From a virus (lineage: Duplodnaviria; Caudoviricetes), in IMG/VR virus record IMGVR_UViG_3300004369_000019, positions 1 through 55,604 of that record: a DNA stretch of 55,604 nt; one strand, written 5' to 3'. Positions 2 through 52,541 of this stretch are shown piece by piece (the first letter of the stretch is position 1; every line of letters begins with the position of its first letter). The position numbers and the translations under genes were made by a program. The notes below the pieces were generated by a model. The model was not told the origin of the DNA. It ran no database searches and saw only the letters and a program-made list of their open reading frames with translations.

Positions 2-622
2 TACACCACCTGCACCATACCATTCATAGTTAATGGAAATCATCTGCTGTTTTGTAGCATCAGCAGTTACACCAGTGTATCCATTACCATCAAACTTTTC
101 ACCATTCCAGTTTTCTCTGGTTACTCTTGTTTCTGTGGTGATACCAGTTGCACTGCTGCGAATTACATAAGAATATGTGCCTCCATCATCCTCAAAGTAA
201 GCACCATCAGTCTCATTAAACAATCCAAATCTTCTGCGAATACCGACTTGTGGTGTTTCTAGACGAACTGCAAATGCGAGAGTTGCTGGTCTACCAGGAA
301 TGTATCTCATTACCTGTTTAGTCTGTCTGATAATCTTACTACCAGCAGTGGAACCAACTTCCATAACCACATTACTGGAAGCAGGATTATGAGTAGCAGT
401 TGCAACACCAACTAGACTCTCATCCCAAACATCAGTCTCCTTACCATACTGGAAAGTATTGAAGAAAACTGTTTGGAAGGGAGCAACCTTTAGTCTGTTA
501 TTGTCGGAAAACTGAGGTCTCCAGTCAGTCTGGTTTCCCCAGTGATCTGCAATATTAAAAACCTCAAAGAGACTTCTCTCTTGATTCAAGAAGTCTTGAG
601 TTTGTTTATTCCACTGAGCCAT
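2..622 (-). CDS. Conserved cyanophage protein, probably virion structural (partial, runs off the window edge)
   Basis: Not in the ORF track. I read ATG at 622 and an open frame to the edge: MAQWNKQTQDFLNQERSLFEVFNIADHWGNQTDWRPQFSDNNRLKV...RYIPGR...YEWYGAG. Confidence 0.75.
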   Translation of the reverse strand, partial: MAQWNKQTQDFLNQERSLFEVFNIADHWGNQTDWRPQFSDNNRLKVAPFQTVFFNTFQYGKETDVWDESLVGVATATHNPASSNVVMEVGSTAGSKIIRQTKQVMRYIPGRPATLAFAVRLETPQVGIRRRFGLFNETDGAYFEDDGGTYSYVIRSSATGITTETRVTRENWNGEKFDGNGYTGVTADATKQQMISINYEWYGAGGV

Positions 623-3810: not shown

Positions 3811-4155
3811 TTAGAAGTTAGAAGTTTCTAGAATTGATGAAAGAAATTTCATGTCCGATCCTGCATCTACAGAAACAGCGATCTTATCTCCTGTTTCTAA
3901 AACTAGTTTTCCAGGAAGAAGATTGACCGTATCTCCTGCAGGAACAGGAAAATCATTTACAATTGGTGTTGTGGTTGTATCAGTGCTGTCGTAGTAACTA
4001 AAAGTAATTTTTCTAGTTACTGTTCCAGTATTGATAGCTTGCGCCAAAAGGAATACTGATGTATATCCTGTTGGTGCTGTATAGATTTGAACGTCTGATG
4101 TTGTGGGCGTATTAGTAATTGTTCTAAAATTATTAATCGCAATTTGAGCAGCCAT
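3811..4155 (-). CDS. Small beta-rich virion structural protein
   Basis: 114 aa with IYTAPTGYTSV and KLVLETGDKI motifs typical of cyanophage structural islands. Confidence 0.6.
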   Translation of the reverse strand: MAAQIAINNFRTITNTPTTSDVQIYTAPTGYTSVFLLAQAINTGTVTRKITFSYYDSTDTTTTPIVNDFPVPAGDTVNLLPGKLVLETGDKIAVSVDAGSDMKFLSSILETSNF

Positions 4156-4159
4156 TTAA

Positions 4160-7100
4160 TTAGTCTCCTAGTGCTAGAATGAATGGTGTTACGTTATTGA
4201 ATAGTGACTTCAGATAGGTTCTACCTGTAATCGTTCCACTTGCTTGGTTGATGGTAACACCATCACCAATTCTAAAGTTACCTGCTTGGTCGGTAGAGGT
4301 ATAAATGACCTCACCACCATCTTCTTTAACAACCTCATTTTCTTGAATTGTTACACCACCAACACCAGGTCTTGCGGTAAAGATATCATTACCTGCACCA
4401 ACATATTCAAATGAGTGAGAAGATGTGATCTGTAAACTTTGGCGACTTAGATAAACTGTATCGCCAATTGATACATTATTATTTAACCCCTGAATAATTG
4501 TGATAGTTGAAAGACCTGCTTGTGGTAAAGTTGCAGATAAAACCTTGTAATATAAAGGATCTGCTTTTGTTACCTCTGCTGTTGCTTGTGTACCACCACC
4601 AGGAGGTGCTGCAATAGACACATTTGGAGTAAGAGTTTCATATTGAGTACCAGTATTGATTAATGTAATCGCAGTAATTGCTCCATTTTCTACAGTTGGA
4701 ATTGCTTGTGCGCCAATTCCATTTGGTCCTGTTGGAGCCTCAATAGTAATAATCGCATCATTTGGAGTGTTATATCCAGTTCCACCATTTGTAATGGTGA
4801 TAGTATTCAGAGAATAATAAAGTTTATCAATGTAGAACACTTGACCATCATAAGGTCTTTGTGTTCCAACTCCACTTACTTCTAAAGTAATATCATTCGC
4901 GGGTGCAGCAGATTCAACTTTCGCAGTTTGTCTATAGATAGACTTAGTTGTGTTATCACTAATACCTTGAGAAATCAAACCAATTCTTCCAAATGAAGAG
5001 TTTGAGTTTGTAAGATCACATTGTCCACCACTTCTTGTTACAATCGCTTCATCGCAACAAATTGTAAAGATAGACACTAACTGAGCGTAAGATCCGTTAG
5101 TGATTGATACTCCAATTCCTCTCTGGTTGTACTGAGTATAAGAGTCAACCGACATGGAACCCTGAACACCAATCTCATCCTCATCACCAGGTTCTGCAGC
5201 AAAACCATCGATCTTAAGACCAATACTGTCGAAAATAAAGTTCGTACAGTTTCTTACATACGGACCTTTAAAGACTTGTCCAACTCCAGGACTGAAGTTT
5301 GGATCAGAATCTTCACCTTCGGCAGGACCATAACCAGCACCATTAAATCCTTCAAATCTAGTAGTAATACCAGTTGGATTTACAGGACTTTGAATTGCGG
5401 TAATTCCTCCACCAACAATTGAAGTAACGATACCAATAACAGTATCGATAGAACTCATTACATTTTTACATCCAGCAGGACTTGTATTACTGTTGACTCT
5501 AGGATCATATTGAATAGACTCATCTTTAACTTGACCGCCACCAAAACTAGCATCTGTTTTAGTAAATGGTTGGAACTTCAGAATGTTACCGGTATTATCA
5601 GTATATGTATGCGAAATTTCAGTAGGTCCGAAGTTTGTTGTGAATGTTGTAGGTCCGACAATTGTATCAACATTAAAGATATTTCCAAATGTTCCATCTG
5701 GGAATACTGTTGTTGTAATCCCGATGAAAGCACTTCCACCACCAATGTAAGTATGATCTAGTGTCGAAACACCAGTATTAACGGTAATAGAACTTGCAAT
5801 AGAAAGTGTTGGGAAATTATTCAGATTTCCTGCACCAACGTGAGTTGTAACAATACCAATCAGACTATCAATAGAAGAACGAATATCTGCACAACCTAAA
5901 GGATCTGTATTGACTCCAACTGCAGGATCCGCAGTAATTGTTGTATCTCTATAATTAAGAACATTATTAATAGCTAATTTTGAATATGCTGCAATAGAAG
6001 AGAATGCAGTTACAGACTCTGACTCTTCACCAATTAATCCACCACTAATAGGATCACCAGTAGCAGTAAAATACTTTCTTGTAGTTTCTCTAATATTTTT
6101 ATTACTATCTGTTCTCAAATCATTGATTAGAGCATCAACAACATATGCAATGTCTCTTCTGCACTTAAATTCTCCACCTGGGAAGTTACCGTAATTAATT
6201 GTAAGACCATTGATAACATTAAGATTTTCTGACTCAATAGCTTCTGTTGCAATACCAACTAAGTTATCAATAGATGCTTGAACATCACTGCAAGAATATG
6301 TCTCACTATTTCCGATAGCAGGACTTCCATCACCAAAATAACTGGATCCGCCAGAAACTGTAGTATCTTTAGTTGATAACTGGTTAGCAACCGCCAATTT
6401 CATCTGATCTCTTGCTGTGTCGAAAGCGAGAATAGATTGTACTTCTTCACCATCAAGACCATTGGTAAGGAAAGTTCCAGAAGCATCAAAATACTTCTTA
6501 GCAAAAGCAATTGAATAATTATTTCCACTGGTAAAAATATCTGTCGAAACAGCATCTACAAGATAGTTCAAGTCTCTCTTACACTTATCTTCAGTTCCAG
6601 ATAATGCGGGATATTCTGTGACCATTGTGGTCCATGCTGTTCCAACAATCTCACCTTTGTTTTGTTGAATCAGACGATATGCATCTTTATATCTGGAAGT
6701 TGTTGTTATTGAGGAATCTCCTGGGAAGAAGAAATCTGGATGAACAATTGCAATATTTGCAAGAGCCTTATCTGTGATTTCTAACTTGTTGCCTGCAATT
6801 AAATTCGCAGAATCTTGATATCTATCTCCACCAACTTTCTCTACTGGGAAGTCATAACCAACAGCACCTGATGGGAAGAACTGAGTTGAAAGACCTCCAC
6901 CAGAATCACATTGGAATACTAAATTTTCTAGGCGAACTTTTCCATCATTTGTAATATATGCTGGATCATTATCGGAATTACCAGATCCACTTGCAGTAAA
7001 TCCAATCGTAGTAAATCCAGTGATTCTATCGTAAACGGCAGAATTAATTCCTACTTCTGGTGTATAATATCTCTGTACCTTAATTGTTCCCGATAAACCA

Positions 7101-9220
7101 CCATTGGCTCCAAGACCAGTACCAATTCTTGCTACAAATGAAGCATCAGAAAGTTTATCATCTACAATCAAATTATCAAAATCGCTACCAGTTGTAGAAG
7201 TAACTGTAATACCATTACCAGACTTTAATTCATGATCAGTAGATGTTTCAAATGTAGTAATACCTGTAACACTATCATAATCGACAGTAATAATTGTAAT
7301 TTCATCTCCAGGAGATCCTGAAGGGCATGTAAATCCTAGTCCAGTAATCTCAACGGAATCGTCTTTAGAAAGATCGTGATCATATCTGGTTGTAACCGTC
7401 GCAAAACCAGTATTACTATCATAAACAATTGTATCAATTGGAGTTGTATATCCAATAGAAACTCCACCCCATGTCGTATTGTTAATTACGCATCGAACGA
7501 TGTCTTGAGCATAATCAACAGCACGAATCGTTTGAGTTACTTCATCAATTGGAGAATTATTAAGAGTTCCTGCTACGAATGAAGAAACACCAACTGCAGC
7601 TAAATCGCTGTCGAAGTAAGTCTTACCAGCAGCAACGACTTTTGTGGATCCACCTCTTGTAATATCGTAGCAAACTGCCTTAAGAATATCTCTTACATCT
7701 CTAGAGCAACGGAACGTATCAAGGTTAATACCAGTGATAATTCCAACAACACCAGAAGAAGATCCTGTACCAACAGCATTTGTTGTAATTCCTGCAAGAT
7801 AACTAATGCTATTACCAACACCAGTACACCATCCTGTTCCTACAATAATTCTATCGTTAGAATCATTATAAAGATATTTCTTATTTCTTCTTGTAGAATC
7901 AATTGCTTGAGTATAACTAGTAGAATAATTATTATATTTTTCTACCGTTCCACCAGTATCATAGGTGTGAGTAATTGAAGAAACGCCAACATTTGTTTTG
8001 AAAGTATTTACTCCAACATATTCTGTTACTGTAAAGTACTCTCCGTTTGTACCATCTGGGAAAATAGTTGTAGTAATTCCACTACCTCCAGGGCAGGTAA
8101 ATGCAATTCCAGCTAGTTCAACAATATCACCAGTTGTTACACCATGACCAACAGAGGTAACGGTAGCGATACCAGTTAGATTATCATAAACAAATCCAGT
8201 AACGTTTGTAGTACCACCAGCACCAACACTAGCCCATGGTCTCTGGTTGATTACATATGTTGCGATACCAACAGCACGCTCAATAGCAGCTACAGTAGCA
8301 TCGGCAATACTATATCCATTTGTATCAACACCATCAACATGATCTAAAGCACCACCAGCAGTAAAGTAAGATAATGCTGCACCTACCGACTTTAAATTAC
8401 CAGTAGATTTTAAATCATATGCAATTGCTTTAAATATATCCTTAACATCATCTTTGCAGTCCTGGGGAGCTCCTGGAGTTACGACAAACGCTGGATTTTT
8501 ATAGTCGGTACTTGTAATATAACCAACAGCTTCTTGTGCAATAAAATCAAGGTTTGCCTCAAGAGCAGTTGCACCATCTTGTGCAAGGTGTGTTCCTGCA
8601 TAACCACTATAACCACTGGTCAGGAATCCAACTGCTTCTCTTGCGATAAAGTCTGAGTTGACGCGAATGAGTCTTGCTGCGTCAAAATATCTATCGGATG
8701 CTACACTCTCAAGAGGTCTAAAAGCAACTGCAGCAGATCCAGAATCCATAGATCCTGTAAATCCAAGGTCAGTTAAGTGACATCCATCATTAACCCAAAA
8801 TAAATCTTTGTCTGCATTTGCTGGAGAAACAATACAGTTTCTTAATTCGAGACCTTCTACAGATACATTTTTATCCAGTATAATTGGATTTTGCTCAACA
8901 TATACACCAGGATAAACCTTAATAGTATCAAAGATTTCTGCTATTTCGGCAGCGGCTTTGATTGATAGTTTTGCATCTCTTTCATTTAAACCTGTATTAG
9001 CATCATCACCTTCTTTACATACAAAAATAGTTTTACCTAGAGATCCTCCAGCACCCACTCGGATAACACGAGTTGCAATTCCAACACCTGCTGTATCTTG
9101 CTTTAAGAATACTTCTCCATCAAAAGCATTTACAGCTAACTCACCGATAGCAAGTTGTGCGGTAGTTGGGATTTTACCGGATACTGTTGACCTTTTTAAA
9201 CGAATCTGAGGATCTGCCAT
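4160..9220 (-). CDS. Large fibre-like virion protein (1686 aa): Mtd_N-like N-terminus, beta-helix segments and four nested phycobiliprotein-like domains
   Basis: N-terminus IRLKRSTVSGKIPTTAQLAIGELAVN; GDDANTG...SIKAA...IKVYPGVYVE beta-helix start; four C-x-[RD]-D helices (C255, C505, C880, C1020); C-terminal SHSFEYVGAG...STDQAGNFRIG. Confidence 0.8.
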   Translation of the reverse strand: MADPQIRLKRSTVSGKIPTTAQLAIGELAVNAFDGEVFLKQDTAGVGIATRVIRVGAGGSLGKTIFVCKEGDDANTGLNERDAKLSIKAAAEIAEIFDTIKVYPGVYVEQNPIILDKNVSVEGLELRNCIVSPANADKDLFWVNDGCHLTDLGFTGSMDSGSAAVAFRPLESVASDRYFDAARLIRVNSDFIAREAVGFLTSGYSGYAGTHLAQDGATALEANLDFIAQEAVGYITSTDYKNPAFVVTPGAPQDCKDDVKDIFKAIAYDLKSTGNLKSVGAALSYFTAGGALDHVDGVDTNGYSIADATVAAIERAVGIATYVINQRPWASVGAGGTTNVTGFVYDNLTGIATVTSVGHGVTTGDIVELAGIAFTCPGGSGITTTIFPDGTNGEYFTVTEYVGVNTFKTNVGVSSITHTYDTGGTVEKYNNYSTSYTQAIDSTRRNKKYLYNDSNDRIIVGTGWCTGVGNSISYLAGITTNAVGTGSSSGVVGIITGINLDTFRCSRDVRDILKAVCYDITRGGSTKVVAAGKTYFDSDLAAVGVSSFVAGTLNNSPIDEVTQTIRAVDYAQDIVRCVINNTTWGGVSIGYTTPIDTIVYDSNTGFATVTTRYDHDLSKDDSVEITGLGFTCPSGSPGDEITIITVDYDSVTGITTFETSTDHELKSGNGITVTSTTGSDFDNLIVDDKLSDASFVARIGTGLGANGGLSGTIKVQRYYTPEVGINSAVYDRITGFTTIGFTASGSGNSDNDPAYITNDGKVRLENLVFQCDSGGGLSTQFFPSGAVGYDFPVEKVGGDRYQDSANLIAGNKLEITDKALANIAIVHPDFFFPGDSSITTTSRYKDAYRLIQQNKGEIVGTAWTTMVTEYPALSGTEDKCKRDLNYLVDAVSTDIFTSGNNYSIAFAKKYFDASGTFLTNGLDGEEVQSILAFDTARDQMKLAVANQLSTKDTTVSGGSSYFGDGSPAIGNSETYSCSDVQASIDNLVGIATEAIESENLNVINGLTINYGNFPGGEFKCRRDIAYVVDALINDLRTDSNKNIRETTRKYFTATGDPISGGLIGEESESVTAFSSIAAYSKLAINNVLNYRDTTITADPAVGVNTDPLGCADIRSSIDSLIGIVTTHVGAGNLNNFPTLSIASSITVNTGVSTLDHTYIGGGSAFIGITTTVFPDGTFGNIFNVDTIVGPTTFTTNFGPTEISHTYTDNTGNILKFQPFTKTDASFGGGQVKDESIQYDPRVNSNTSPAGCKNVMSSIDTVIGIVTSIVGGGITAIQSPVNPTGITTRFEGFNGAGYGPAEGEDSDPNFSPGVGQVFKGPYVRNCTNFIFDSIGLKIDGFAAEPGDEDEIGVQGSMSVDSYTQYNQRGIGVSITNGSYAQLVSIFTICCDEAIVTRSGGQCDLTNSNSSFGRIGLISQGISDNTTKSIYRQTAKVESAAPANDITLEVSGVGTQRPYDGQVFYIDKLYYSLNTITITNGGTGYNTPNDAIITIEAPTGPNGIGAQAIPTVENGAITAITLINTGTQYETLTPNVSIAAPPGGGTQATAEVTKADPLYYKVLSATLPQAGLSTITIIQGLNNNVSIGDTVYLSRQSLQITSSHSFEYVGAGNDIFTARPGVGGVTIQENEVVKEDGGEVIYTSTDQAGNFRIGDGVTINQASGTITGRTYLKSLFNNVTPFILALGD
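5410..8692 (-). other. Four phycobiliprotein/globin-like helical domains inside the 1686-aa protein
   Basis: Repeated RYxDA..LI..N..I...A helix, KCxRD..Y..DA...D...G helix and C..V..SI..LvGI helix, collinear with phycocyanin beta as I recall it. Confidence 0.7.
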
Positions 9221-9294: not shown

Positions 9295-12200
9295 TTAGTA
9301 TTCCCCACCGTCTATAGTAATATTTACTAAAGTTCTGGTTGAATCTGCACATTCAATAATATCAGAAGTTCCTACGCAATCAGAAATTGTTATTGATTTT
9401 GCAACTAATTTTGCATATTGATTGATAGATAATACTTCAGATGATTCTGAAACATCTGAGGCAATTCCAATAGAACCCAAAGAATCATCCCAGAAAATAG
9501 CAGCTTTCTTTGCGCTAACATCATAATAATTTAAAACTAAACCAACATCTTTATTTTCATCAGAAGTAGGAATAACTAAATCTGTAAAGGGTGATATTGT
9601 ACTTATTCCTAAACCAAGTTCTAATAATCTATCTTTAAATTTAACATTTGCAGAGAGTACGTTAAAATCATCGCCTTTAACAATTAAATTACCATTTACT
9701 GTTAAAGTAGAAACAATTCCAGCATTACCACCAGATTCTAATGTTATAGAAGTAGTTTGATCCGCTGCATTAATGTTATTAGATCCTACTGTTATATCAC
9801 CAGCAACTGTTGTATTTGCAGATCCATCCATCGTAATATTGACGGAATTATCAGACGCTCTGATATTATCGCCATTAACTCTAAGATCTCTTTCAATCTG
9901 AGTATAATTTGTATCAAGCGTAATATTTGTTATACCAGCACCAGACTGAATACTATTTCCCTCAACCTTTAGTGTTCCTGCTATAGAAGTTAGAGAAGGA
10001 GCAAGAGAAATATTTAAACTTCCATTAGATCCTCTAATCTCATCTCCATTAACTTGAATATCTCCAGCAAATATAGTGTTTAGGTTTGTAACCATTGTAA
10101 TATTGGTTACACCACCAGCAACTCTGATATCATTACCATCGACTTGAATATCTCCAGTAAATCTAGTCAAGTCGGCACCGGTCATAATAATATTTTCCTG
10201 ACCATCAGATGCCTGAATAGCGTTACCATCAATTCTAATGTCGCCCGCAAATCTTACAATTGGATTTCTGAAAGAAGTAAAACCTACAGGAGATCCTATT
10301 GTAATTTGATCTCCTAGTGCAAAAGCATTAATTGTTGTAGAATTTGAATTACATAGATTAAACGTTGCATTTCTAACATCAAAAGTACTACCATTCATTG
10401 CAATATCATTTGCAAATTCTGTTAAGGTATTACCATTGATTGTAATATTTTCAAGTCCATTTACATTTTTAATTGCAGCGGTAGTAATTCCAATCGCTCC
10501 TAATAATATATCTCCTCTTACCGAAGTTAAATAGGTATTAATCGTTGAAACACCAATTGTAGATCCAATGGATAAAGATCTTTGATCATTACTAAACATT
10601 TCAATAGTATTGATTCCATCTTCAAAGAATTTTAAATTCTTACTTGTAAGAGATGATGGATTCATCGATATTACGAGATCTTCAGAACCCGCACCATCTA
10701 CATATAGATTTCCTCCAATCAATAAATTATCTGTGAACGGATTATATCTCAGTCCAAGCTCACCATCACCACCAGCAGATCCATCATCAACAAATACGGA
10801 ACTTTCTATATTTCCACCAGTACTATCAGTAAGCATAACTTGATAGTACTGATCAGTAGTAGCAGTACCAACATCGATTGCTTTTGCCCTCAAAGACGTT
10901 GTTGCTGTTCCTAAAATATCTTCAATAGCAGTTAACTGCCTTATAGTTACTGTGTCTATTGTAGATTCATTTTGAAGATCTACTCCATTATAAAATATTG
11001 CACTTCCAGGTGTTCCGCTATGATATAATGCACCAGTAAAAGTTGCAATACCAGAAACAGATAAATTGTTTATTACTGCCTCAGTATTAATAGCAACTGT
11101 ATTAGCAGAAATTTCATTTGTATATACACTAAACCATTTATATGAGGGATCTCCCAGATTATATCCTGAATCTGTTGTAGGAACAATAGCACTATCTACT
11201 TGAGTATTAAATCTAATAATGTGTGTAGAAACACCGATTACTTCACCTGGATTACCAAGGTCAATAGAAGATGATCTTATTAATGTTGTTCCACCATCGA
11301 ACGAGGTAGGAGCCACTTGAAAATCTCTACAAGATACCAAACCAGTGGTCATCAATTCATTTACTACATGAAGATTATCTCCAAATATTCCTCCCCCAGA
11401 AACTTGCAATGCGGGAGCATTAGTTCCAGTAACTCCGATGCTAGTAAAATCAAATGCTTTTTGAGCATTATCAATAAAAAATAAATTTTGAAAAGTTGAG
11501 AGACCAACTGGTCCTCCAGAAACGTATATGTCTCCAATTTCACATGGTCCTTCATTAAATCTCACTCCAGACTGAACTATTAATCCAGGTCCAGCTGCAG
11601 CAGATGGTACAAAAATTTCACCATCATCATTAATAATAATTCCATTGGTTCTAATATTTCCATCTGCTTGATAAACTGATCCAGCAATACCAATTCCGCC
11701 TGCAACAGTAACAAGTCCAGAATCTATCGAAGAAGATACTCTATCTGCTTCTGGAAGACCACCATCAGTTATTCTGACTGGTCCTTGTAATTTAATTTGA
11801 CCTCCACCAACATTTAAAGCATCCCGAGCATTTAATCCTGCTATCGATAAATCTCCTCCACCATTAATAGAAAGTGGAATAGTCGATTGTACAATTCCCC
11901 CACTAGAATTTCCAATACTTATTGATGCGTTATTGATAGCAAGAGATATGTGTGTTGTACCTATACCAACTCCAGACTGAACATCAGTATCAATTACTAT
12001 ATTACCACCTATATTTGTTATACCAAGAGGAATGATTAATGCATCTGTATCTTGTGGTGCTGAATCATACTCACCAGCCGTTATAGTAATTGTTGATCCA
12101 AAACTACCTATTCCTTCTACTCTTATTTCCCCTTCTATTTCAACTCCACCACCAAGATTTTCAGAATTTTTTGAAAATAAAGATCCATTTGAAGAAACCA

Positions 12201-12393
12201 CCTGAAAAAATCTCGTTATATCAGTGGTTCCTATTCCAACTGCTGGGTTTAGTTCTAATCCAGTGTAAGCAGATGCTCCAATAGCAAGAACTTGGTTAAA
12301 CTGATAAGAAGCGCCCAGATTTATTTCCTGAGTATGATCTTCAATGCCAATATAAGCGGCTAATTGAGATAGTTCTCTATTGTTCCTTGCCAT
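9295..12393 (-). CDS. Tail fibre-like structural protein with ~30-aa beta repeats
   Basis: 1032 aa, I/G/S/T-rich. Repeats FAGDIRIDGNAIQASDGQENIIM / FTGDIQVDGNDIRVAGGVTNITM / FAGDIQVNGDEIRGSNGSLNISL and others; ends IDGGEY. Confidence 0.75.
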   Translation of the reverse strand: MARNNRELSQLAAYIGIEDHTQEINLGASYQFNQVLAIGASAYTGLELNPAVGIGTTDITRFFQVVSSNGSLFSKNSENLGGGVEIEGEIRVEGIGSFGSTITITAGEYDSAPQDTDALIIPLGITNIGGNIVIDTDVQSGVGIGTTHISLAINNASISIGNSSGGIVQSTIPLSINGGGDLSIAGLNARDALNVGGGQIKLQGPVRITDGGLPEADRVSSSIDSGLVTVAGGIGIAGSVYQADGNIRTNGIIINDDGEIFVPSAAAGPGLIVQSGVRFNEGPCEIGDIYVSGGPVGLSTFQNLFFIDNAQKAFDFTSIGVTGTNAPALQVSGGGIFGDNLHVVNELMTTGLVSCRDFQVAPTSFDGGTTLIRSSSIDLGNPGEVIGVSTHIIRFNTQVDSAIVPTTDSGYNLGDPSYKWFSVYTNEISANTVAINTEAVINNLSVSGIATFTGALYHSGTPGSAIFYNGVDLQNESTIDTVTIRQLTAIEDILGTATTSLRAKAIDVGTATTDQYYQVMLTDSTGGNIESSVFVDDGSAGGDGELGLRYNPFTDNLLIGGNLYVDGAGSEDLVISMNPSSLTSKNLKFFEDGINTIEMFSNDQRSLSIGSTIGVSTINTYLTSVRGDILLGAIGITTAAIKNVNGLENITINGNTLTEFANDIAMNGSTFDVRNATFNLCNSNSTTINAFALGDQITIGSPVGFTSFRNPIVRFAGDIRIDGNAIQASDGQENIIMTGADLTRFTGDIQVDGNDIRVAGGVTNITMVTNLNTIFAGDIQVNGDEIRGSNGSLNISLAPSLTSIAGTLKVEGNSIQSGAGITNITLDTNYTQIERDLRVNGDNIRASDNSVNITMDGSANTTVAGDITVGSNNINAADQTTSITLESGGNAGIVSTLTVNGNLIVKGDDFNVLSANVKFKDRLLELGLGISTISPFTDLVIPTSDENKDVGLVLNYYDVSAKKAAIFWDDSLGSIGIASDVSESSEVLSINQYAKLVAKSITISDCVGTSDIIECADSTRTLVNITIDGGEY
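9735..10430 (-). repeat. About 7 degenerate 30-31 aa fibre-shaft repeats
   Basis: Consensus F/IAGDIxVxGNxIxxxxGxxNITM visible in the translation; boundaries approximate. Confidence 0.7.
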
Positions 12394-12417
12394 GTTGGTA
12401 GATCTTTCCTATGTTTG

Positions 12418-12424
12418 TATTTAT
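12418..12424 (-). promoter_or_regulatory. Late promoter ATAAATA
   Basis: TATTTAT on + strand, 25 nt upstream of the 12393 start. Confidence 0.6.
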
Positions 12425-12759
12425 CAGATAGATACTGTAAATAGAGTTCCATCAGTGTGTACACCAACTCTATATTGAGTTCCCGTAGAATCAGTCAAAA
12501 TCAATCCTTTAGAGGTATCTACGCCAACTCTTGCATCACCATTGATGTCCAAATTTGCTGTAGGTTGAGTGCTACCAATACCTACAGAATATCCAGTTCC
12601 AACAATAACATCTGATTGAACTTTACCTCCAATCGTGACATCCGTACTAATCGCAACAGTATTTGCGTTTAGATTAAGATTAGTTGGACTTGTTAAATTG
12701 GGGGTGCCAGATGAACCAATCAGTTTTATCTTCTTTACACCAAAATCCTTATTAGCCAT
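12424..12759 (-). CDS. Small fibre-associated structural protein
   Basis: 111 aa; VGIGSTQPTANLDING and GLILTDSTGTQYRVGV..DGTL fibre motifs. Confidence 0.6.
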   Translation of the reverse strand: MANKDFGVKKIKLIGSSGTPNLTSPTNLNLNANTVAISTDVTIGGKVQSDVIVGTGYSVGIGSTQPTANLDINGDARVGVDTSKGLILTDSTGTQYRVGVHTDGTLFTVSI

Positions 12760-12773
12760 AAGTCTTTTCTAGT

Positions 12774-12780
12774 TATTTAT
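12774..12780 (-). promoter_or_regulatory. Late promoter ATAAATA
   Basis: Overlaps the stop of the S8 gene, 15 nt upstream of the 12759 start. Confidence 0.55.
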
Positions 12781-14708
12781 TCGTATGATAAATTGATTCC
12801 CTCAAGAGTTATATTTTCCATAGAAACTTTATCATCATTAGCATATGGGTTATAAGTAACTCTTGGATCTGCACCTCTTAAATTATAACTTCCAGTCCAA
12901 TAATTTGTTTGAGTGTCGTCATTAATTGCAGAATAAAAACCATCACCAGAACTAGAAGATGTAGTTACTGGTAAAATAGTAGTGCCATGATCTTTTAACC
13001 AATTCTTCACATCTCTTGATGTTGCCTTTGGATTTGCCTCTAGAAATAGTGCAATTAAACCACATGCAACGGGAGATGCAGCAGAAGTTCCACTAAAAGA
13101 TGCGTCATAAAATCTAGTGTCATCATATCTTTCATAGTCAACATAACTAGCAACACCATTAGTTCCAGCAGCTAAAGTTTCATTTGCTGGAGCCCAAACA
13201 TCAATACCAGGACCATTATTTGAATATGATGCTTGATATTCTGCACCAGCAATAGTTAAAGTATCTTCTAATGCACCGACACATACAACGGGATGAAAAT
13301 CTTTTGTTTCATCAAATCCAATTCCTTGAGGGTTCATCCAATCTCTATGATTGCAAGGAACTGTTGTTGATGGAAATTCATCTCTAGGGTCTGTTGTACT
13401 AAAGTAATCATCTTCAAGATAATTCAAACGATCTGGATCATCTGCACCAATACCAAGTCTTTGATTATTATTACCTGCTGCAGCAACATAAATGACACCT
13501 TCTAACATCATTTCATTAGCAGCAGCATCAGTTGAATTGGAACGTGAAGAAGTTGACCAAGACCTATATGCACCAGGGATTTGATTTATCAATCCACTTT
13601 TCATTGCAGTAACTTGATCTGTTACTGCTGCATTTCCAATAAATGAACCTGTTGAACCTCTGAATTTATAGATTACAGTATCACTAGATGAAAATGCTGC
13701 TTGATAACCCCAACTACCATTAATAATTGTTGGATTTTTTCTACCAGTTGATGAATTGACTGGTTTTAGACGTTGCCAAAGTTTCATCGCATCATAATTA
13801 GTTTCAGCACCCATTGAAACATTATCATCACCAATACCAGGCATATTCCAAATATTTGCTTCAAAAGCATTACCAAAGTTTTTACCTGCAACTAAAGAAG
13901 CACAAGCAGTTCCATGTCCACTTGTTAAACTATTAGTTCCATCTAAAGATGAACCCATAGATCTTGCTTCAGTATAGTTTGATGATACGAAAATAGTTCC
14001 TTCTGATTGAAACTGTGCAGATCTATTAGAACTATTTGTCCACCAATCTCTAGATGCTGATTCTTGTCCTGTTACTCTACCATCTGCTCTTGTAGTTGTA
14101 TATCCATTAGAGATAAAGTAATCTGGATCAATATAATATGGTCCATCAAGAATAATGTCTCTGACTCTTGATTGACCATTTGCATCCATAAACTCTGGAT
14201 GATATTGCAAAACTCCAGAGTCATGAATAATTACATCTACATTTCTTCCAGTAAGAGAATATGAAACATCACCTTCTTGAACTGCAACAGTACTACTATT
14301 ATCTGAGAAAAATTCTCCACTTTTTCTAACCGTTGGTCTTGCTACACCCCAATTAGATCTATTTTCTTCTGCAGAAGTTGGACCTGTAACTGGTATAGAT
14401 TGAGAAACTAAATCCCGATAAAACTTTACATTCTTCTTAAATCTTTTTGTAGCAAAATCTGGTTTTGGATATGCATCTGGATTGTGTGTTGGAGATAATT
14501 CAATCCATTTAACATGTGGATGGTTAGCAATTTCTGCTGCTTCTTCTTCAGTTAGTTCATAAGTTCCTCTGGTAGGACTATGATTTTTAGAATCAGCACA
14601 TGTAACTTGTCTGTCTGGAATATTATCTTGATTAGAATCTACAATTAAAGCATCATGAATCTCAGACCAATATTCCGGACTCGTAACAGCTAATGTGTAT
14701 TTTTTCAT
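12777..14708 (-). CDS. Subtilisin-family (S8) serine protease
   Basis: Catalytic Asp (VDVIIHDSGV), His (GHGTACASLVAG), oxyanion Asn (VAAAGNN) and Ser (FSGTSAASP) all present; propeptide-like N-terminus. Confidence 0.9.
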   Translation of the reverse strand: MKKYTLAVTSPEYWSEIHDALIVDSNQDNIPDRQVTCADSKNHSPTRGTYELTEEEAAEIANHPHVKWIELSPTHNPDAYPKPDFATKRFKKNVKFYRDLVSQSIPVTGPTSAEENRSNWGVARPTVRKSGEFFSDNSSTVAVQEGDVSYSLTGRNVDVIIHDSGVLQYHPEFMDANGQSRVRDIILDGPYYIDPDYFISNGYTTTRADGRVTGQESASRDWWTNSSNRSAQFQSEGTIFVSSNYTEARSMGSSLDGTNSLTSGHGTACASLVAGKNFGNAFEANIWNMPGIGDDNVSMGAETNYDAMKLWQRLKPVNSSTGRKNPTIINGSWGYQAAFSSSDTVIYKFRGSTGSFIGNAAVTDQVTAMKSGLINQIPGAYRSWSTSSRSNSTDAAANEMMLEGVIYVAAAGNNNQRLGIGADDPDRLNYLEDDYFSTTDPRDEFPSTTVPCNHRDWMNPQGIGFDETKDFHPVVCVGALEDTLTIAGAEYQASYSNNGPGIDVWAPANETLAAGTNGVASYVDYERYDDTRFYDASFSGTSAASPVACGLIALFLEANPKATSRDVKNWLKDHGTTILPVTTSSSSGDGFYSAINDDTQTNYWTGSYNLRGADPRVTYNPYANDDKVSMENITLEGINLSYE

Positions 14709-27927: not shown

Positions 27928-30900
27928 TCAAATTCTAATCAATCTATTTAGTGCATTTCTAATAATCATAATGTTTGTCTTCAGTAAGAAGTCAGACCTT
28001 CTTCCTCTTCTTCCACCTCCTCTTTCACCTCCTCTTCTAGCAGGTCTACCTCCCGGACGTGGTGGACGTGGAGCAGGTCTTGGTCTAGGTCTTGGTGCAG
28101 GTCTTGGTGGATAACCACTTCCTAATGCTCTTCTCCTATTTGCGCTTGGTGCTGGACTTGGTGCTGGTCTTGGACGTGTTCTCCGTCTTGGTGGTGTTGG
28201 TCTTGGATGATACTTCTTAATACTTCCTCTCTTAAGTGGAAGTTTATTGATGGGGAATCCTTCTCCTTTCTTCTCAAATTTCTTCTCACCACGCTTGGTA
28301 ACTTTCTTAGATGCCTTTGGATGCTGTGTAGCAATTAGAGTTGCTCCATACTTCCACAATTGAGGTTCACCCTTATTGTAGAATCCATAATCTTTATCCT
28401 CTGGTTTAATTATATCAATTCTATTACTCTTCACACCCTTCTTCTGAAGTTTTCTTGCCTTCTTAGTGGTATCAATTATAACCATTTCGCCATTTCTCTT
28501 TTGACGAACTGCAATTGAAGTTGTCTTTTTTTTACCTCCTATTGGTCTTGCAGGTTTTCCTCTACCAGGATACTTCTTAGGGGGAAGTGGATATCCTTCT
28601 GCTTTAAATGCTTTCTTAGCGTCTTTGTTTCCTCCTCTTTCCCTAATCTGGTCAAAAGTTAAATATCTAGTTTTACCTTTGTTTTTACCTTTTTTAATTG
28701 TATAAGGAACATACCAAACAGGAAGTGCTTTTCCTTTCTTATCAAAGACGTATTTAACTTTAGCAGTTTTAATCTTTGGTCTAGGTCTCTTGCCTGAAGG
28801 CGGTGTAGGTTGAGGATCTCCTGTAGGATTCCCTTTGTTAGGGAGATTCACTGGAGGAAACGGGTCTTCGTGGGGTTTTGGCTCCTCCGGTGGTGGTGGT
28901 GGTGGTGGTTTCCTCTTGTTGTGAGAAAGTAGACCTTCTGAAATATAAGTATGAGCACCTTCAACTGTGATATGAACAACTGGTCCATTTTCAACAGTTT
29001 CAATACTCTTCAATGTTTGTCCAGAAACTTCATCACCGACTTCCATGTCTCTGGCTTCTTTCCAAGAGTCACCAACACGGAACTTGTGGTAAATTGAACA
29101 AGTTATTTCACTTTCACTAAAGATTAACTTGAGTTTTTCAACATCTTCTACAATAGAAGCATGAATGACTGGATAATCGCCATATTCAAAAGTATCTTCA
29201 TGATATGTTTTGACCATATCACCGACTACCAGATCTCCTGCTCTCTTCTGAGAACCATCGTGCATTAAAATTAATGCATTAGGATCTGGACATACCACCG
29301 GGGGTCGTGGGCGAATCGGGTCACCGCCGCCATCGGGACCTGGATCAATAGGATCAGGTTCTGGAACAACTGGATATTGTGGTCTTTGAGGTTGTGGACC
29401 TGGTGGTTGTGGTCTCGGTCTTGGTCTAGGTCTTGTAGGCTGAGTGGGTACGCCTGGTCCTCTTGGTCCTGGACGAGGACGTGGATCTGGTTCTGGTCTT
29501 GGTGGTTTTGGTTTTTTCTTAGTACACTTGAGAAGAACTTTTGGATCACCAACTTCAGCGATAGGAAGTAAAGTACATTTCCGACTCTTAGGAATTTTCC
29601 ATCTTCTAACATAGAATCTTTTCGCAACATCACTACCAACGCAAGTAAATTGATCTTCTGCTGCGGTTGTTATTTCACCTTCTCTTTCACTATTAGTTGG
29701 TGAGTCAACTAATCTAAAAGTTTTAACTCCAGCCGTAAATGTACGCCCAAATTTATTCTTTCTTACACCATCTGCCTTTGGTAGGAAGAAGTTTCCTCTT
29801 AATTGACCATTTTCGTCAGTAACAAATTTTTTATTAACAATTTTACATATTGCTTTACTTGTCTGACCCTTTAACTTCATTCCAGCGCCAGTAATAAATC
29901 CCCAATACTTTCCTTTAGACTGTAAAGTCATGATAAAAGTATCAATATTCAATATTGTAGAATTTGATGCGTAACTAGTAGGCATCAAAGTCTGACTATA
30001 TGGATTTACCCTATAGAATTTTGTTGGTGCATTAAAAGGTCCATCCAGATGATTTATCTTACATACTCTAGAAGAAAATCTAGTATGATGTCTCCAGCCT
30101 CTTATGGCCTTCATTTGAACTTTTCTTTTTCTTACTTTAATTGCAAGTGTATTATGGACTCTAAATCTTCTTCTCTTAGCAGCAATAACTGTTTCCCCAA
30201 CTTGGAAAGTTCCCTTAACCATTTGTATTTCTAATAGTTTGGGGAAAGAAGTATTTGATACTGGAATATCATCAAAGAAAGGATATACCCTTGTAAAGGG
30301 TTTCATTTTGACGGCTCTAAATTCAATATTCCGCATTCTCATCCATTTGCGGAAAGTTACAGATACAAATCTTGCGCCAACTTTTACTCTCTTAGCCCAG
30401 AATGGGTTTTTAATCGGAACTGCACCTATTCCATCTTTATTAATTTTAATTTTTCTCTGCCCAAATATTCTTTTTCTTAATCTCTTTCTATCACCTTTTC
30501 TGTTTGGTCGATCTCCTTTAACTTTATCGCCTCTTCTATCTGGAACACCTTTCCAATGATTTCTCCAATCTCTCCAAGTAACTCCACCCCAACCCCAATT
30601 GGGGTTGTTTTTCATTTTCCTCATTTGTCGATTGGTAAACCAGTATTTACCTCTTCTATTATTAAATCCTACACAACCACCTCTATTTTGTTGAACCCAT
30701 GCATCGGTTTCTGGTTGAAGCGTAAGTTCTCCCTGATAAAATATATCGACAATAGTATTAATTGGAACGTTCTGTGTTGCATATGGTTGTACAATTTCAA
30801 CTTGCTCATCATAGTCTAATGTGATTACTCTTCCAGTTTTTCTAACACCTTCACCAATTAAATTAGAATCATATTCTGGATCCAAATTAACAGAATCTAC

Positions 30901-36219: not shown

Positions 36220-36226
36220 TATTTAG
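36220..36226 (-). promoter_or_regulatory. Late promoter CTAAATA
   Basis: Overlaps the gp7 stop, upstream of gp8. Confidence 0.55.
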
Positions 36227-39200
36227 ACGTTATAATTAAGTGATTTTAAAGGATTCTTCCTTCTTAACATTGGAGAAGTATTAATACCTGTAACTCCATT
36301 ATCTCTCTTAATATTGTATACCTCTGGATAAGGTCTAACAATATTATCAAGTCTTCCCCAAGAGAAAGTTCCAAATGTTTGTCTAGAGAGGAATGAAGTA
36401 ATTCCTAAAGACTCATAAGTTTCAACAACAGTAACAACTTTTGTATTAGTATCTATGATCAATGTTGCATCATCCGCAACAGTAGTAGATACTCCAAATC
36501 CAATTGAATATGATCCATACCTTGTTAAACTCGCAATAAAGTCATCGCTAAGAACAATTATAGGAATATCTGTTGCAATATCATGAACTTGGTATACATT
36601 ATCAATATAATCTTTACCATCCACTAAATCAGAACCATCTGTTTCAATAGAAGTCAATCCAGCACCAGATATTCCAATGATTGAATCTCTGATAACAAAG
36701 TAATCTCCCGTTCCAATACCACTGTAGATAATTGTATTTCCACTTCCAACAATACTTTCATCCTTTAATGGAGAATTTTCTGGAATTGAGAATTCAAAAA
36801 CTAAACCTTGCGAAGACCCAGCTCCAATAGTTGTTGTTCCAACACCAATAACTTCACCAAAATCACCAGCATAATCAACTCTAAAGACAGTTTCTGATCT
36901 TGGAGTTGGTGGAGAAATTAGAACTGCTGGTGGATGGTTATCATCATAACCAGTTCCTCCTGCAGATACAGTAATAGTTGTTAATTGCCCAGAAGCAATA
37001 GCAGCAGAAGCTGTTGCTTGATCTCCACCATCTTCTACTGGTTTTCCTATAGAAATAGTTGGAATCTTGAAATATCCACTACCAGTATTTGTTACTGTAA
37101 TTTGGGTAACAATACCTGCTGTAACAGATGCAGTAGCTAATGCTTCTGAGGTATCATCTTGATCAATAATATCAACAGTGCTTACATATAAATCTGTTGT
37201 GTTTTCTTTTTGGTTATCAAAGAATGTTTTTACACCTTCAATCCATATTTGAGTGCTTGCTGCACCAACATCATAAATCAATGTAGTTAATGGAAGTATA
37301 GATGCTTCATAGATATCTCTATCTTTAGTAATTTCTTGACCATCGATGATAGCATCGGATGTTGCTCGACACCAGTTAACTGACCTTTCTATAAATGGAT
37401 CATCACTAATTCCAACACCACCATATAAAAATGTATCTACAGAATCCGTAGAAGTAACTTCTTTTACAGAACGGTCAGTCTGATCGAGATCTGGTTCATC
37501 ACTGAGCATTGTTAAAAGATCTCCAGCAGATACTGTCTCTAAGATATCTACAAATTCAACATCAATATCTCCAGTTCCTTTATAGAATAGAATCTTGCAA
37601 GAATCTCCTAATGCAGGAGCTTCAGTGAATCTAATAGTACTTCCTCCTGGGAACAAGTAAGCTTCTCCAGGAACTTGAAGAACGTCATTGATAAAAACAA
37701 GGAGAGTTGCTTGAACGTCGATTAAAGATCCTTTTCCTGCTTTAATTGATGTTCTAACACCATTGAATTTAATTGCAAATCTTGTTTTTTCTCCATTAAA
37801 TTGATCACTGATATCATCAATTACATCAAGATCTCCAATAGTCCATCCAGTAAATTGGTCAGTTTCAGTTTTGGTAATATAGAAATTGAACTCATTAAAA
37901 TCTAATGTTGTTGGTAACGTTAAAGTTGGTTCAGCGGAAGGAGATTCAATTACCGGAGCATATGCAGATCCATCACCAATAATTGTGGTAATAATTCCAA
38001 CTAAGTTATAAATTGAAGATGCAACATCAGAACAGCAGTCCACACTATAAGAAGGACTGCAATCAGTATCATAATCAATTGTAGTATCTGTATACTGAGT
38101 AACCGATACTGCTATTCCTTGATATGATACTGGTAAAATTTGATTGTTTATAACGTATGTTGAAATACCAGCAAGATAATCATATGTTGCAATAGTTTCT
38201 GTAGTCTCTCCGGTAACATAGTTTAGTGGTCCATTCCAATACTTATTACCAGCTGCAACAGAATTAAAGTTTCCGCCAAAGAAGAGATCATTTGCTAAGG
38301 CATCAACAATATATCCAGTGTCTCTTTCGCACTTAGTTTCATCGTAATCTGGGTTAGAAAGTAGAGAAGGATATGTAGCCGTTGCATATCCAACAGCTTC
38401 TTTAATCAAGAATTGCCTATTGTAAGCAAGGAGATTTCCAGCATCAGCAAATCTTCCATGATACATGTAAGGAATTCCATCTGTTCCACCAACAGAAACT
38501 GTTAATACATTGTTGATTTCATATCCATATCCAACATTTTTTATTTCAAAGTCAGTTACACTAGATCCTTCTCCAACAACAACACTAACCTTTGCAGCTC
38601 TTCCTCCAGTATCTCCAATTGAAGTTGTGGAATATGTTGTAGCAAGATTATCATATGGAAGAGGATCATCAAAGTCCACTGTAAAGTATTTTTCAACCTT
38701 ACCGCCAGAACTATAAGAGTAAGAATCTGTAGTGACTCCAGTATTAACTTCAAACTCAGTACCACTATTAACTGCTCTTACACTTAAATATTCTATTATG
38801 GGACTATTAATAATTTCTCCCACTCCAGAAAGAACAACTTCATTACCAACAGATAATCCATGTGCAGTAGATGTTGTAACTGTTGTTAACCCAGTTGTTG
38901 TAGTATGACCAACAGTAGATATATCTCTAGGAACATAGAATACATCAGAATTTGTAACAGCTACTCCAGTAACTCTTCCTCTAGTAACAAGAGCAGTTCC
39001 TATTGCAACTTTACTGGAGGATTCTACAGTTTCTTCGCGAATATAAACTTCGATATTGGTTTGAATTCCAGTTCTATATCCACCACCAACATTAGAAATG
39101 TTAATCGCACTGATAGTTCCTGCAGAAGAAACTGTAGCGGTTCCAGCAGCAGAAACTAACGATTGATATCCAAATCCTTTGGTAGATCCAACAGAAACAA

Positions 39201-51785: not shown

Positions 51786-52541
51786 TTATTGGGTATCAAG
51801 ATGACGACCCTCTTGTGATTTATACATATCTATTGGATTTTCTTCTTCTTTGACTGTGTACCAGTCGTAGTCAGCGATTGTTGGTTCTTCTTTTTTACGT
51901 TCTTTTGCTGTTTTCCAAAAATATTCGTCCTCTCGACCCATACCAAGTCGATCAAAACCGTTCTCAACACTATATTCTATGGTTGAAACCTTGAAATCAG
52001 GCATTTTTGGTTCTTCTGGAGTCAATGAGTTGTCGAAAATGCGTAATCTATTGTTTGGATATAGTGCATATTGACCATTATTGAGTTGAATTAGGTTATG
52101 TGACTTATGTTCTGCTGGATTTTCACTTGTAGCATAATCAATTACATCAGGATCTTGATGATAGTTGTCTATTGTACAGATATAAGTACCTTTTTGAATT
52201 CCATGATCGCGGGTATAGCATTCAAAATCCATACTTCCAATGAATTGCTTAGTGACTGCTACGACCCCATAATCCATACAATTCCAGAATTGGAGGTTAG
52301 GTAGCGACATATCAGGTTCGGGCGCTTCCGGGCGATTTAAGAAGGCACTGATGGGCAATTTGTCGTACATTGCCGCATATTCTGGTAGATAAGTTTCAAA
52401 GTAAAATGCTCTTCCTGGTATACTCTTACAACTAACCCATACACCCTTTACATATTCCCCATGACCGCTCTGATGATCTGTTAAGTATTCTTTTCGGACC
52501 CATACTTCAACAGATGGTAAATTACAAATCAAAGCAGCCAT
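51786..52541 (-). CDS. Conserved cyanophage hypothetical protein
   Basis: 251 aa; NLPSVEVWVRKEYL.DHQ.GHGE...LQFWNC...EHKS...GQYALYPNNR. Confidence 0.75.
   Translation of the reverse strand: MAALICNLPSVEVWVRKEYLTDHQSGHGEYVKGVWVSCKSIPGRAFYFETYLPEYAAMYDKLPISAFLNRPEAPEPDMSLPNLQFWNCMDYGVVAVTKQFIGSMDFECYTRDHGIQKGTYICTIDNYHQDPDVIDYATSENPAEHKSHNLIQLNNGQYALYPNNRLRIFDNSLTPEEPKMPDFKVSTIEYSVENGFDRLGMGREDEYFWKTAKERKKEEPTIADYDWYTVKEEENPIDMYKSQEGRHLDTQ

Follow-up and report, generated by a model that had tools for sequence, protein, structure and literature searches.

The stretch analysed here, called the window below, is a 55.6-kb viral contig at its full length (IMG/VR record IMGVR_UViG_3300004369_000019, 55,604 nucleotides), which is estimated to be 26% of a genome. 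It encodes a fibre-type virion protein of 1686 amino acids, and the feature under study, at positions 5410–8692, corresponds to residues 177–1270 of this protein. An earlier note on this DNA, made from the letters alone, had proposed that the fibre holds phycobiliprotein (PBP)-like domains with both bilin-attachment cysteines and that the virion is a candidate for bearing pigment and sensing light. All the peptide stretches quoted in it were present in the translation of the open reading frame (ORF), and the eight cysteines were found at the positions it had given (C255, C505, C880, and C1020 for the first site; C465, C977, C1110, and C1251 for the second). The central 1100 residues of the fibre protein are made up of four PBP-fold globin domains, D1 to D4, together with their inserts.

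The domains were delimited with a hidden Markov model (HMM) built from 97 copies, which matched the fibre protein in eight pieces with complementary model coordinates (Table 1). The count of four helical domains made in the earlier note was right, and the HMM coordinates add that they are nested. The order of the pieces reads as a balanced bracket, D1a (D2a [beta] D2b) D1b ([beta] D3a (D4) D3b [beta]) D1c, with the inserts located in the loop between helices B and E and in the loop between helices G and H. Piece a of D2, which spans helices A/B to F, probably runs on to about residue 340. The outer–inner–outer order around D4 recurs in 40 of the 44 related loci that were read through; four loci (L020, L022, L049, and L084) were left out of the two-domain alignment, as their downstream part differs. 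The 346-residue model of residues 795–1140, made from the 40 loci and the window, had a predicted local distance difference test score (pLDDT) of 87.5 and a predicted template modelling score (pTM) of 0.88, and it placed the helices of D3 piece a at model residues 4–16 and 18–32 and those of piece b at 221–336. A fold search with this model matched just the inner domain (model residues 16–202), so the split D3 is backed by sequence and a confident global model and not by a structural match. We consider it very likely that the four domains lie one inside another and not in tandem; with beta-rich domains at the turns, such nesting means that the chain runs out and back.

Table 1. Coordinates of the fibre gene, its domain pieces and the fifth domain copy in the window, and of the loci with cpeT and a giant PBP-domain gene in three isolate phages. 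i-E, independent E-value of the domain HMM match.
Feature	Coordinates	Strand	Candidate bilin-site residues	Basis
Whole gene (P0001), 1686-aa virion fibre/tail-type protein	4160..9220	(-)		ORF translation; PHROG tail-fibre matches
D1 piece a, residues 174-209, helices A/B	8594..8701	(-)	D180	HMM 6-41, i-E 4.6e-4
D2 piece a, residues 215-291	8348..8578	(-)	D215; C255-K-D-D258	HMM 12-82, i-E 4e-9
Beta-rich 'FTC' insert, residues 335-445, in D2 G-H loop	7886..8218	(-)		Between D2 pieces; phrog_1276 on 335-438
D2 piece b, residues 450-487, with helix H	7760..7873	(-)	C465	HMM 127-165, weak alone, i-E 0.11
D1 piece b, residues 502-592, helices E to G	7445..7717	(-)	C505-S-R-D508	HMM 43-115, i-E 6.3e-8
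D3 piece a, residues 799-829, helices A/B	6734..6826	(-)	D803	HMM 8-38, i-E 6.8e-4
D4, residues 836-999, complete, uninterrupted	6224..6715	(-)	D846; C880-K-R-D883; C977	HMM 2-165, i-E 2e-69
D3 piece b, residues 1007-1132, helices E to H	5825..6202	(-)	C1020-R-R-D1023; C1110	HMM 33-165, i-E 7.4e-37
D1 piece c, residues 1231-1272, with helix H	5405..5530	(-)	C1251	HMM 116-164, i-E 1.4e-5
C-terminal tail-fibre-type region, residues 1307-1686	4163..5302	(-)		phrog_17885 on 1307-1686; phrog_3442 on 1211-1684
Fifth uninterrupted PBP-like copy	37966..38457	(-)	KCERD; CC before last helix	HMM 8-165, i-E 2.8e-26
cpeT-giant gene locus, S-PM2	LN828717.1 154408-167723			
cpeT-giant gene locus, Syn1	NC_015288.1 19938-33236			
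cpeT-giant gene locus, S-RSM4	NC_013085.1 162121-177047			

The fold of a single domain was predicted with AlphaFold2 for residues 835–1005, with an alignment of 56 single copies (A2) as input. The model (pLDDT 88.1, pTM 0.88) has six helices. In a Foldseek search against the PDB, all the matches listed were PBP beta chains (best 3v57_B, E 9e-4, TM 0.64), and the best match in VIA-align was 7s96_B, with 135 residues aligned at a root mean square deviation (rmsd) of 2.0 Å and Z 17.4 (model 5..162 on chain 32..177). The 50 VIA matches listed were all PBP-type chains with Z from 15.4 to 17.4, bar one titled just 'Bacterial fluorescent protein', and the aligned lengths among the VIA and Foldseek matches listed were 130–141 residues with an rmsd of about 2–3 Å. 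The earlier note had set a non-globin fold as an outcome that would speak against its proposal; the predicted fold is of the globin type and matches PBP beta chains.

The phage domains share with PBP beta subunits (CpcB, CpeB, and the cryptophyte beta chain) the globin-type helices A to H, an Asp in the first core helix, the Cys-x-Arg-Asp motif of the long helix at the centre, the 'MK.A' and 'NG' positions, and a second Cys immediately before the last helix; in the model, this cysteine (model residue 143) directly precedes the helix of residues 144–163. The two groups differ in that the phage domains have just 15–21% identity to the beta subunits, are embedded in a virion protein of 1686 amino acids, and are interrupted by other domains. 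The N-terminal X/Y helices are missing, as had been claimed: the structural alignments of the single-domain model begin at PBP residue 23–34 (residue 32 of 7s96_B), the HMM domain starts at the first core helix, and upstream of D4 nothing is helical except the outer domain's own A/B helices. From the model and these alignment ranges, the fold is the PBP globin core without X/Y helices. The usual surface for PBP alpha–beta pairing would then be missing as well, and because of this and the virion context the canonical PBP assembly (alpha–beta monomers, trimers, and rods) seems unlikely for the phage domains.

At the level of sequence, the likeness is faint in the fibre protein itself and clearer in its relatives. 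The sole Pfam family matching the fibre protein was PF00502 'Phycobilisome protein' (curated cut-off 22.2 bits), at E 0.17 and 12.3 bits for the whole protein and at E 0.0032 and 17.9 bits for residues 795–1005 alone. A homologue search with residues 795–1140 as the query gave 368 proteins at E <= 0.001 among 7108 candidates, and of the 120 homologues listed from these 368, 76 have a precomputed PF00502 match. After rescanning, 11 of 13 relatives exceeded the PF00502 cut-off, with 29.6–42.2 bits and E from 7.7e-7 to 1e-10. Twelve of the 56 single domain copies matched PF00502 at E <= 0.01, and among the same copies one other Pfam family was matched, once, at 0.0053. In NCBIfam, TIGR01338 (C-phycocyanin alpha) was the top match of three relatives (E 5.4e-11 to 1.3e-6), and the scan of residues 795–1140 of the fibre protein gave no match. 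The relatives score 28.5–42.8 bits, compared with the equivalog cut-off of 269.45 bits for TIGR01338, which means that the PBP-like domains are not CpcA.

Profile comparisons gave a consistent picture. The profile of the 56 copies matched eight PDB sequences at E <= 10, and all of them were C-phycocyanin alpha chains, individually insignificant (E 0.2–0.75), with K-C-x-R-D-l-G-y-f aligned to the bilin-cysteine motif; phmmer with the whole fibre protein against PDB sequences gave none at E <= 10, and nothing usable was found in an ESM Atlas search with the domain. Reference alignments of the alpha and beta chains were made from cpcBA loci of cyanobacterial genomes. With hhalign, the 97-copy phage alignment matched C-phycocyanin alpha at a probability of 90.6% (E 1.3e-6, 57 columns) and C-phycocyanin beta weakly, at 8.4% (E 0.004, 59 columns), and C880 fell on the bilin cysteine in both. 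A forced global alignment to beta, which has a probability of 0.7% and is a guide only, paired D846 with the Asp in 'KRLDA' and C977 with the Cys in 'GDCS', and the 'MK.A' positions of helix G lined up. Three claims of the earlier note are supported on these grounds: the collinearity of the helices with the first motif as Cys84-x-Arg-Asp (from the profile match to PDB C-phycocyanin alpha and from hhalign), the second cysteine as the putative beta-Cys155 position before the last helix (from the forced alignment and the structural ranges), and the kept Asp of the 'RLDA' helix (from the forced alignment and the HMM pieces). CpcA is the best match at sequence level, with K-C-x-R-D-(I/L)-G-(Y/F)-(Y/F) aligned with its bilin site, but CpcA in the loci fetched has no counterpart of the second cysteine site seen in beta. 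We are nearly certain that the domains are true PBP homologues with the PBP fold.

In PBPs, the bilin is held by residues of the types Cys84, Arg86, and Asp87 at one site and Cys155 and Asp39 at the other, and this is the sole function that these residues have there. All four domains of the fibre protein have the Asp39-, Cys84-, Asp87-, and Cys155-equivalents (Table 1), and three of the four have the Arg86-equivalent, which is Asp in D2. Conservation was counted in the query and the 120 listed homologues (121 proteins, 1170 pieces), which are related and therefore not independent. The Cys84- and Asp87-equivalents were each kept in 700 of 708 pieces, the Asp39-equivalent in 642 of 648, and the Cys155-equivalent in 692 of 693. 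The first-site motif was C-x-R-D in 666 of the 708 pieces, C-x-D-D in 28, another C-x-x-D in 6, F-x-R-N in 7, and Y-x-R-Y in 1, and all eight pieces without the Cys84-equivalent were also without the Asp87-equivalent. The F-x-R-N copies are relatives of D4 with 67–69% identity and retain the second Cys, which argues, indirectly, against an obligatory disulfide between the two cysteines. In 14 isolate genomes, Cys and Asp were likewise retained. Sixteen columns are conserved at >= 80% both in the phage set and in C-phycocyanin beta, including D39, C82, R84, D85, and C153; in all, about 51 of the 166 domain columns are conserved at >= 80%, many of them without a PBP role.

Beside the PBP-like domains, a beta-rich domain with 'F-(T/Q)-C' and 'FPDG' motifs recurs at the turns of the nested array. 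Partial copies lie at residues 590–660, 725–802, and 1140–1220, and the first and last of these cover complementary halves, so the beta-rich domain may itself be split by insertion. A downstream ORF of 114 amino acids (3811–4155) matches phrog_1276, as do residues 335–438 of the fibre protein.

The families phrog_3442 and phrog_17885 ('tail fiber protein') match the fibre protein at E 0 and 1.9e-241, respectively, and further PHROG tail-fibre matches are phrog_4527 and phrog_5342; these likenesses to cyanomyovirus tail-fibre families cover the C-terminal part of the protein. The neighbouring genes form a T4-like structural module for baseplate wedge subunits, a sheath stabiliser, head closure, and fibre assembly; giant proteins, 2233 and 4324 amino acids long, are also encoded there. 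The long and short tail fibres and the gp7 wedge of T4-type cyanomyoviruses share these genomic surroundings with the fibre protein, with genes for baseplate, sheath stabiliser, and fibres nearby. Database annotations call the relatives tail, short tail fibre, or virion structural proteins, and those in BFVD are named 'Tail protein', 'Structural protein', or 'hypothetical'. Judged from sequence, the best explanation is that a T4-like cyanomyovirus uses the gene product in its virion as a fibre or as a protein attached to the baseplate. A megablast search of the gene against phages gave just four short matches of 75–80%, which indicates that there is no close sequenced isolate. In a tree of the baseplate protein gp6 (17 rows), the window's phage is sister to Synechococcus phage S-SM2 with a support of 100/98; S-RSM4 was left out of this tree, its extracted stretch being just 7 residues.

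The 4324-amino-acid protein (ORF 36223–49197, minus strand) is gp7-like and matches phrog_2885 'baseplate wedge subunit'. The fifth PBP-like copy sits at its residues 3584–3747, counted from the upstream stop. The same protein also bears a YHYH domain (PF14240, E 1.6e-23, residues 1241–1334). Within the ORF of the 2233-amino-acid protein (27928–34629), positions 28001–30000 have a G+C content of 0.41, compared with about 0.33 on either side, and an AT skew of -0.23. Elsewhere in the window, an ORF of 251 amino acids (51786–52541, minus strand) matches phrog_3704 at E 1.2e-115, a family labelled 'ferredoxin' among auxiliary metabolic genes. It was considered as a bilin reductase and dropped, as it has no match in Pfam or NCBIfam.

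The distribution of the domain was examined by tblastn against 50,697 phage records, and 298 records with the domain were found. By the first word of the name, 227 of these are Synechococcus, 58 Cyanophage, 12 Prochlorococcus, and 1 Marine. The window's gp6 baseplate protein, used as a control, was found in 1236 records, of which 459 are cyanophages (374 + 61 + 24) and 777 have other names, including Klebsiella, Salmonella, Escherichia, Vibrio, and more. The control thus reaches T4-like phages of enterobacteria, Vibrio, and others, while none of these is among the 298 records with the PBP-like domain. Among phage records, the domain is thus confined to cyanophages by name, apart from the one 'Marine' record; cyanophages infect PBP-bearing hosts. 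An HMMER search over 1.84 billion metagenome cluster representatives (50% identity) gave 965, 607, and 244 proteins at E <= 0.001, 1e-10, and 1e-30, respectively; most among the 150 matches listed of the 965 have 1000–8000 amino acids, with up to 34 stretches. A 432,844-base IMG/VR contig filed as viral (L012) has a short 40% match to domain residues 71–117 at 347496–350633; this contig may belong to a jumbo phage or be of cellular origin. In the literature searched, with most subscription journals and supplements outside the search, no paper was found that describes a PBP-like domain in a structural protein of a phage. What is known here is the kind of domain; what is new is its location in a virion, its self-nesting, and the possible pigment.

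Seventeen isolate cyanomyovirus genomes were searched with the domain profile and with the Pfam family CpeT (PF06206) for the phage bilin lyase gene cpeT. Both were found in 12 genomes (S-PM2, P-HM1, P-HM2, P-SSM4, S-SM1, P-RSM4, Syn33, Syn19, Syn1, S-SSM5, Syn9, and S-RSM4), the domain without CpeT in 2 (S-ShM2 and P-SSM7), CpeT without the domain in 0, and neither in 3 (P-SSM2, S-SM2, and S-SSM7). A naive one-sided Fisher test of this table gives 10/680 = 0.015, a value that ignores kinship and is invalid as it stands. The features noted in P-SSM4 (NC_006884.2, 16642–17064 and 74640–75179) are a CpeT-like ORF of 148 amino acids, above the Pfam cut-off, and two long PBP-like copies that have lost both cysteines; a 2010 review states that cpeT is not found in P-SSM4 (PMC2984593).

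In S-PM2 and Syn1, the genes on one strand are, in order, a small hypothetical gene, cpeT, tRNA genes, a 2OG-Fe(II) oxygenase gene, the giant PBP-domain gene, and gp12, and S-RSM4 has the same order with an HNH endonuclease in place of the oxygenase. The giant PBP-domain protein of these loci is T4-like GC 734, and gp12 is the short tail fibre. The cpeT gene lies upstream of the giant gene by 1.45, 0.7, and 0.95 kb in S-PM2, Syn1, and S-RSM4, respectively, and the gene order from cpeT to gp12 is conserved across three genera. A 96%-complete IMG/VR contig has cpeT (6766–7269) close to the domain locus (9625–13101), and a 37%-complete relative of the window's phage has a cpeT-like ORF. The phage lyases are stated to be of the T type in clusters A and B and of the S type in cluster C (PMC10665884), and the target of T-type lyases to be the Cys153/155 position (PMC10452541). 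The single-gene gp6 tree groups the window's phage with S-SM2, S-SSM7, and P-SSM2 (92/95), which lack the domain, and this suggests that the domain-bearing fibre gene was lost repeatedly or exchanged. The co-occurrence and synteny with cpeT are circumstantial support for a bilin, from a small sample with few independent events.

A second line of circumstantial evidence comes from adsorption. According to PMC6628666, P-HM1 and P-HM2 show no adsorption in the dark, and S-PM2 needs light for adsorption but not photosynthesis. P-SSM2 does adsorb in darkness, but to a lesser extent than in the light, and dark adsorption is also reported there for the podoviruses P-SSP7 and P-GSP1. The numbers of domain matches in S-PM2, P-HM1, and P-HM2 were 10, 3, and 3, respectively. 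P-SSM2 had no domain match with either profile, and when all six frames of its whole genome were searched with the HMM unfiltered, the best E was 0.29, compared with 1e-21 to 1e-215 for the control loci; P-SSP7, S-SM2, and S-SSM7 likewise had no domain match. Across four phages, the presence of the domain fits the need for light in adsorption.

We propose that the virion carries a covalently bound putative bilin, and we put the probability of this at roughly 0.45. The PBP-fold domains would be chromophorylated in the infected cell, the Cys84-type sites being filled by host S/U-type lyases or by autocatalysis and the Cys155-type sites by the phage's own or the host T-type lyase (CpeT/CpcT), and the released virion would bear covalently bound bilin. 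As a speculative further step, light absorbed by the bilins might change the fibre in such a way that adsorption is favoured in the light. We regard light-gated adsorption through the predicted virion bilins as unlikely. The same degree of doubt applies to the whole scheme, in which the virion itself would be a biliprotein, CpeT would load its Cys155-type sites, and the bilins would act as a photoreceptor of the particle that gates adsorption to daylight.

The PBP-like domain of the core-membrane linker ApcE is likewise a PBP-fold part of a large multidomain protein. It has a loop insertion between helices B and E, and its bilin is attached without a separate lyase. By this analogy, an embedded and interrupted PBP domain may still be pigmented. 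The two differ in that ApcE has a single PBP domain and works in the phycobilisome of the cell, while the phage protein is a virion protein with four nested copies.

Several observations weigh against a bound bilin. The fibre protein itself is under the PF00502 cut-off, as are the two closest relatives scanned (15.8 and 15.9 bits), and the scores of the other relatives are sums over repeats, no single stretch passing alone. The alignment to the beta profile is weak, and the placement of C977 on beta-Cys153 comes from the forced alignment at 0.7%. Other positions (N854, L987, N946, D889, D894, N900, Y902, and Y910) are equally invariant and have no known PBP role, so strong conservation does not set the bilin residues apart. 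In other phages, many baseplate-type copies have T, D, or L in place of the Arg, and a lyase could be hindered by the large insertions beside both candidate sites. The lyase association rests on one or two events, as the three phages with neither domain nor CpeT cluster on the gp6 tree. S-ShM2 and P-SSM7 bear Cys-containing copies without a CpeT match, while P-SSM4 has the CpeT-like ORF and yet its two long copies are without both cysteines (one of them keeps the Asp). The window has no cpeT, which is uninformative in 26% of a genome. P-SSM2 carries bilin reductase genes (PMC2984593) and has no domain, so phage bilin synthesis does not appear to be tied to the domain. The comparison of light need covers four myoviruses, two of one species, and P-SSM2, too, adsorbs less well in the dark (PMC6628666).

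The first alternative is a pigment-free structural module: the PBP fold, captured from a host gene, would now act just as a stiff helical unit that can be nested to build stalks of different lengths, and the conserved Cys, Asp, and Arg would be kept for folding, for packing, for binding a metal, or for cross-links that form once the particle is released into oxygenated sea water. We consider this quite possible. The many conserved columns without a PBP role indicate a strong structural constraint in any case, the Arg86-equivalent varies between R, T, D, and L in many copies, copies without either cysteine persist in P-SSM4, and two domain-bearing isolates have no CpeT match. In addition, the identity of 15–21% to PBPs is, as we infer, far below what known lyases are shown to accept, and coloured cyanomyovirus particles were not found reported in the literature searched. 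However, a structural module leaves unexplained that the four bilin-holding residues at two sites survive at about 99% while identity elsewhere is about 17%, that the Cys84- and Asp87-equivalents are lost jointly in 8 of 8 pieces, and that the presence of the domain agrees with that of cpeT in 15 of 17 genomes, the two being neighbours in three. A disulfide between the two cysteines is an unlikely reason for their conservation, as relatives keep the second after losing the first. In PBPs, the two bilin sites are far apart.

A pocket kept for another ligand is improbable in our view; it might capture a free tetrapyrrole non-covalently, give the particle photoprotection or a redox function, or recognise a molecule on the host surface. 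The pocket residues are conserved without indicating the identity of the ligand, the domain occurs in fibre and baseplate proteins that contact the host, and in S-PM2 and Syn1 cpeT and the fibre gene have a 2OG-Fe(II) oxygenase gene between them; but both thiols are near-invariant, which points to covalent chemistry rather than mere binding, nothing supports any alternative ligand, and the cpeT link fits bilin transfer best. Convergence or chance, that is, a generic helical bundle that shares a short C-x-R-D motif with PBPs, is hardly credible: no single stretch is over the Pfam threshold alone, the PDB sequence matches are insignificant, and a helical model may score a Z near 14 with helical chains to which it is unrelated (a note of the VIA tool), but the structural matches listed are of the PBP type throughout, with Z of 15–17.4, the whole-protein Pfam E-values are 1e-7 to 1e-10 in 11 relatives, the hhalign probability to phycocyanin alpha is 90.6%, the common residues are collinear in three separate helices and both bilin sites, and the domain is restricted to phages of PBP-bearing hosts.

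The proposal of a bilin on the virion bears on two puzzles in cyanophage biology. In many cyanomyoviruses a bilin lyase gene is present while its operon partners are absent, and PMC3037559 describes what phage cpeT does as 'unresolved' and what pcyA/pebS do as 'a mystery'; several cyanomyoviruses adsorb just in the light, independent of host photosynthesis (PMC6628666). A pigment-protein domain with both putative attachment sites intact is one testable candidate answer to both. The domain is widespread (298 phage records and 965 metagenome clusters), yet the database names are uninformative about its likeness to PBPs. If the pigment is never bound, a host photosynthesis protein would have been turned into a virion building block with an unusual self-nested domain architecture, which may be a potential scaffold for engineered fluorescent or modular proteins. 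If CpeT does load bilin onto the virion, there would be a purpose for cpeT, though not necessarily for ho1, pebS, and pcyA, since P-SSM2 has the reductases and no domain; if the bilins also gate adsorption, no earlier case of a virus particle with a light sensor of its own would exist.

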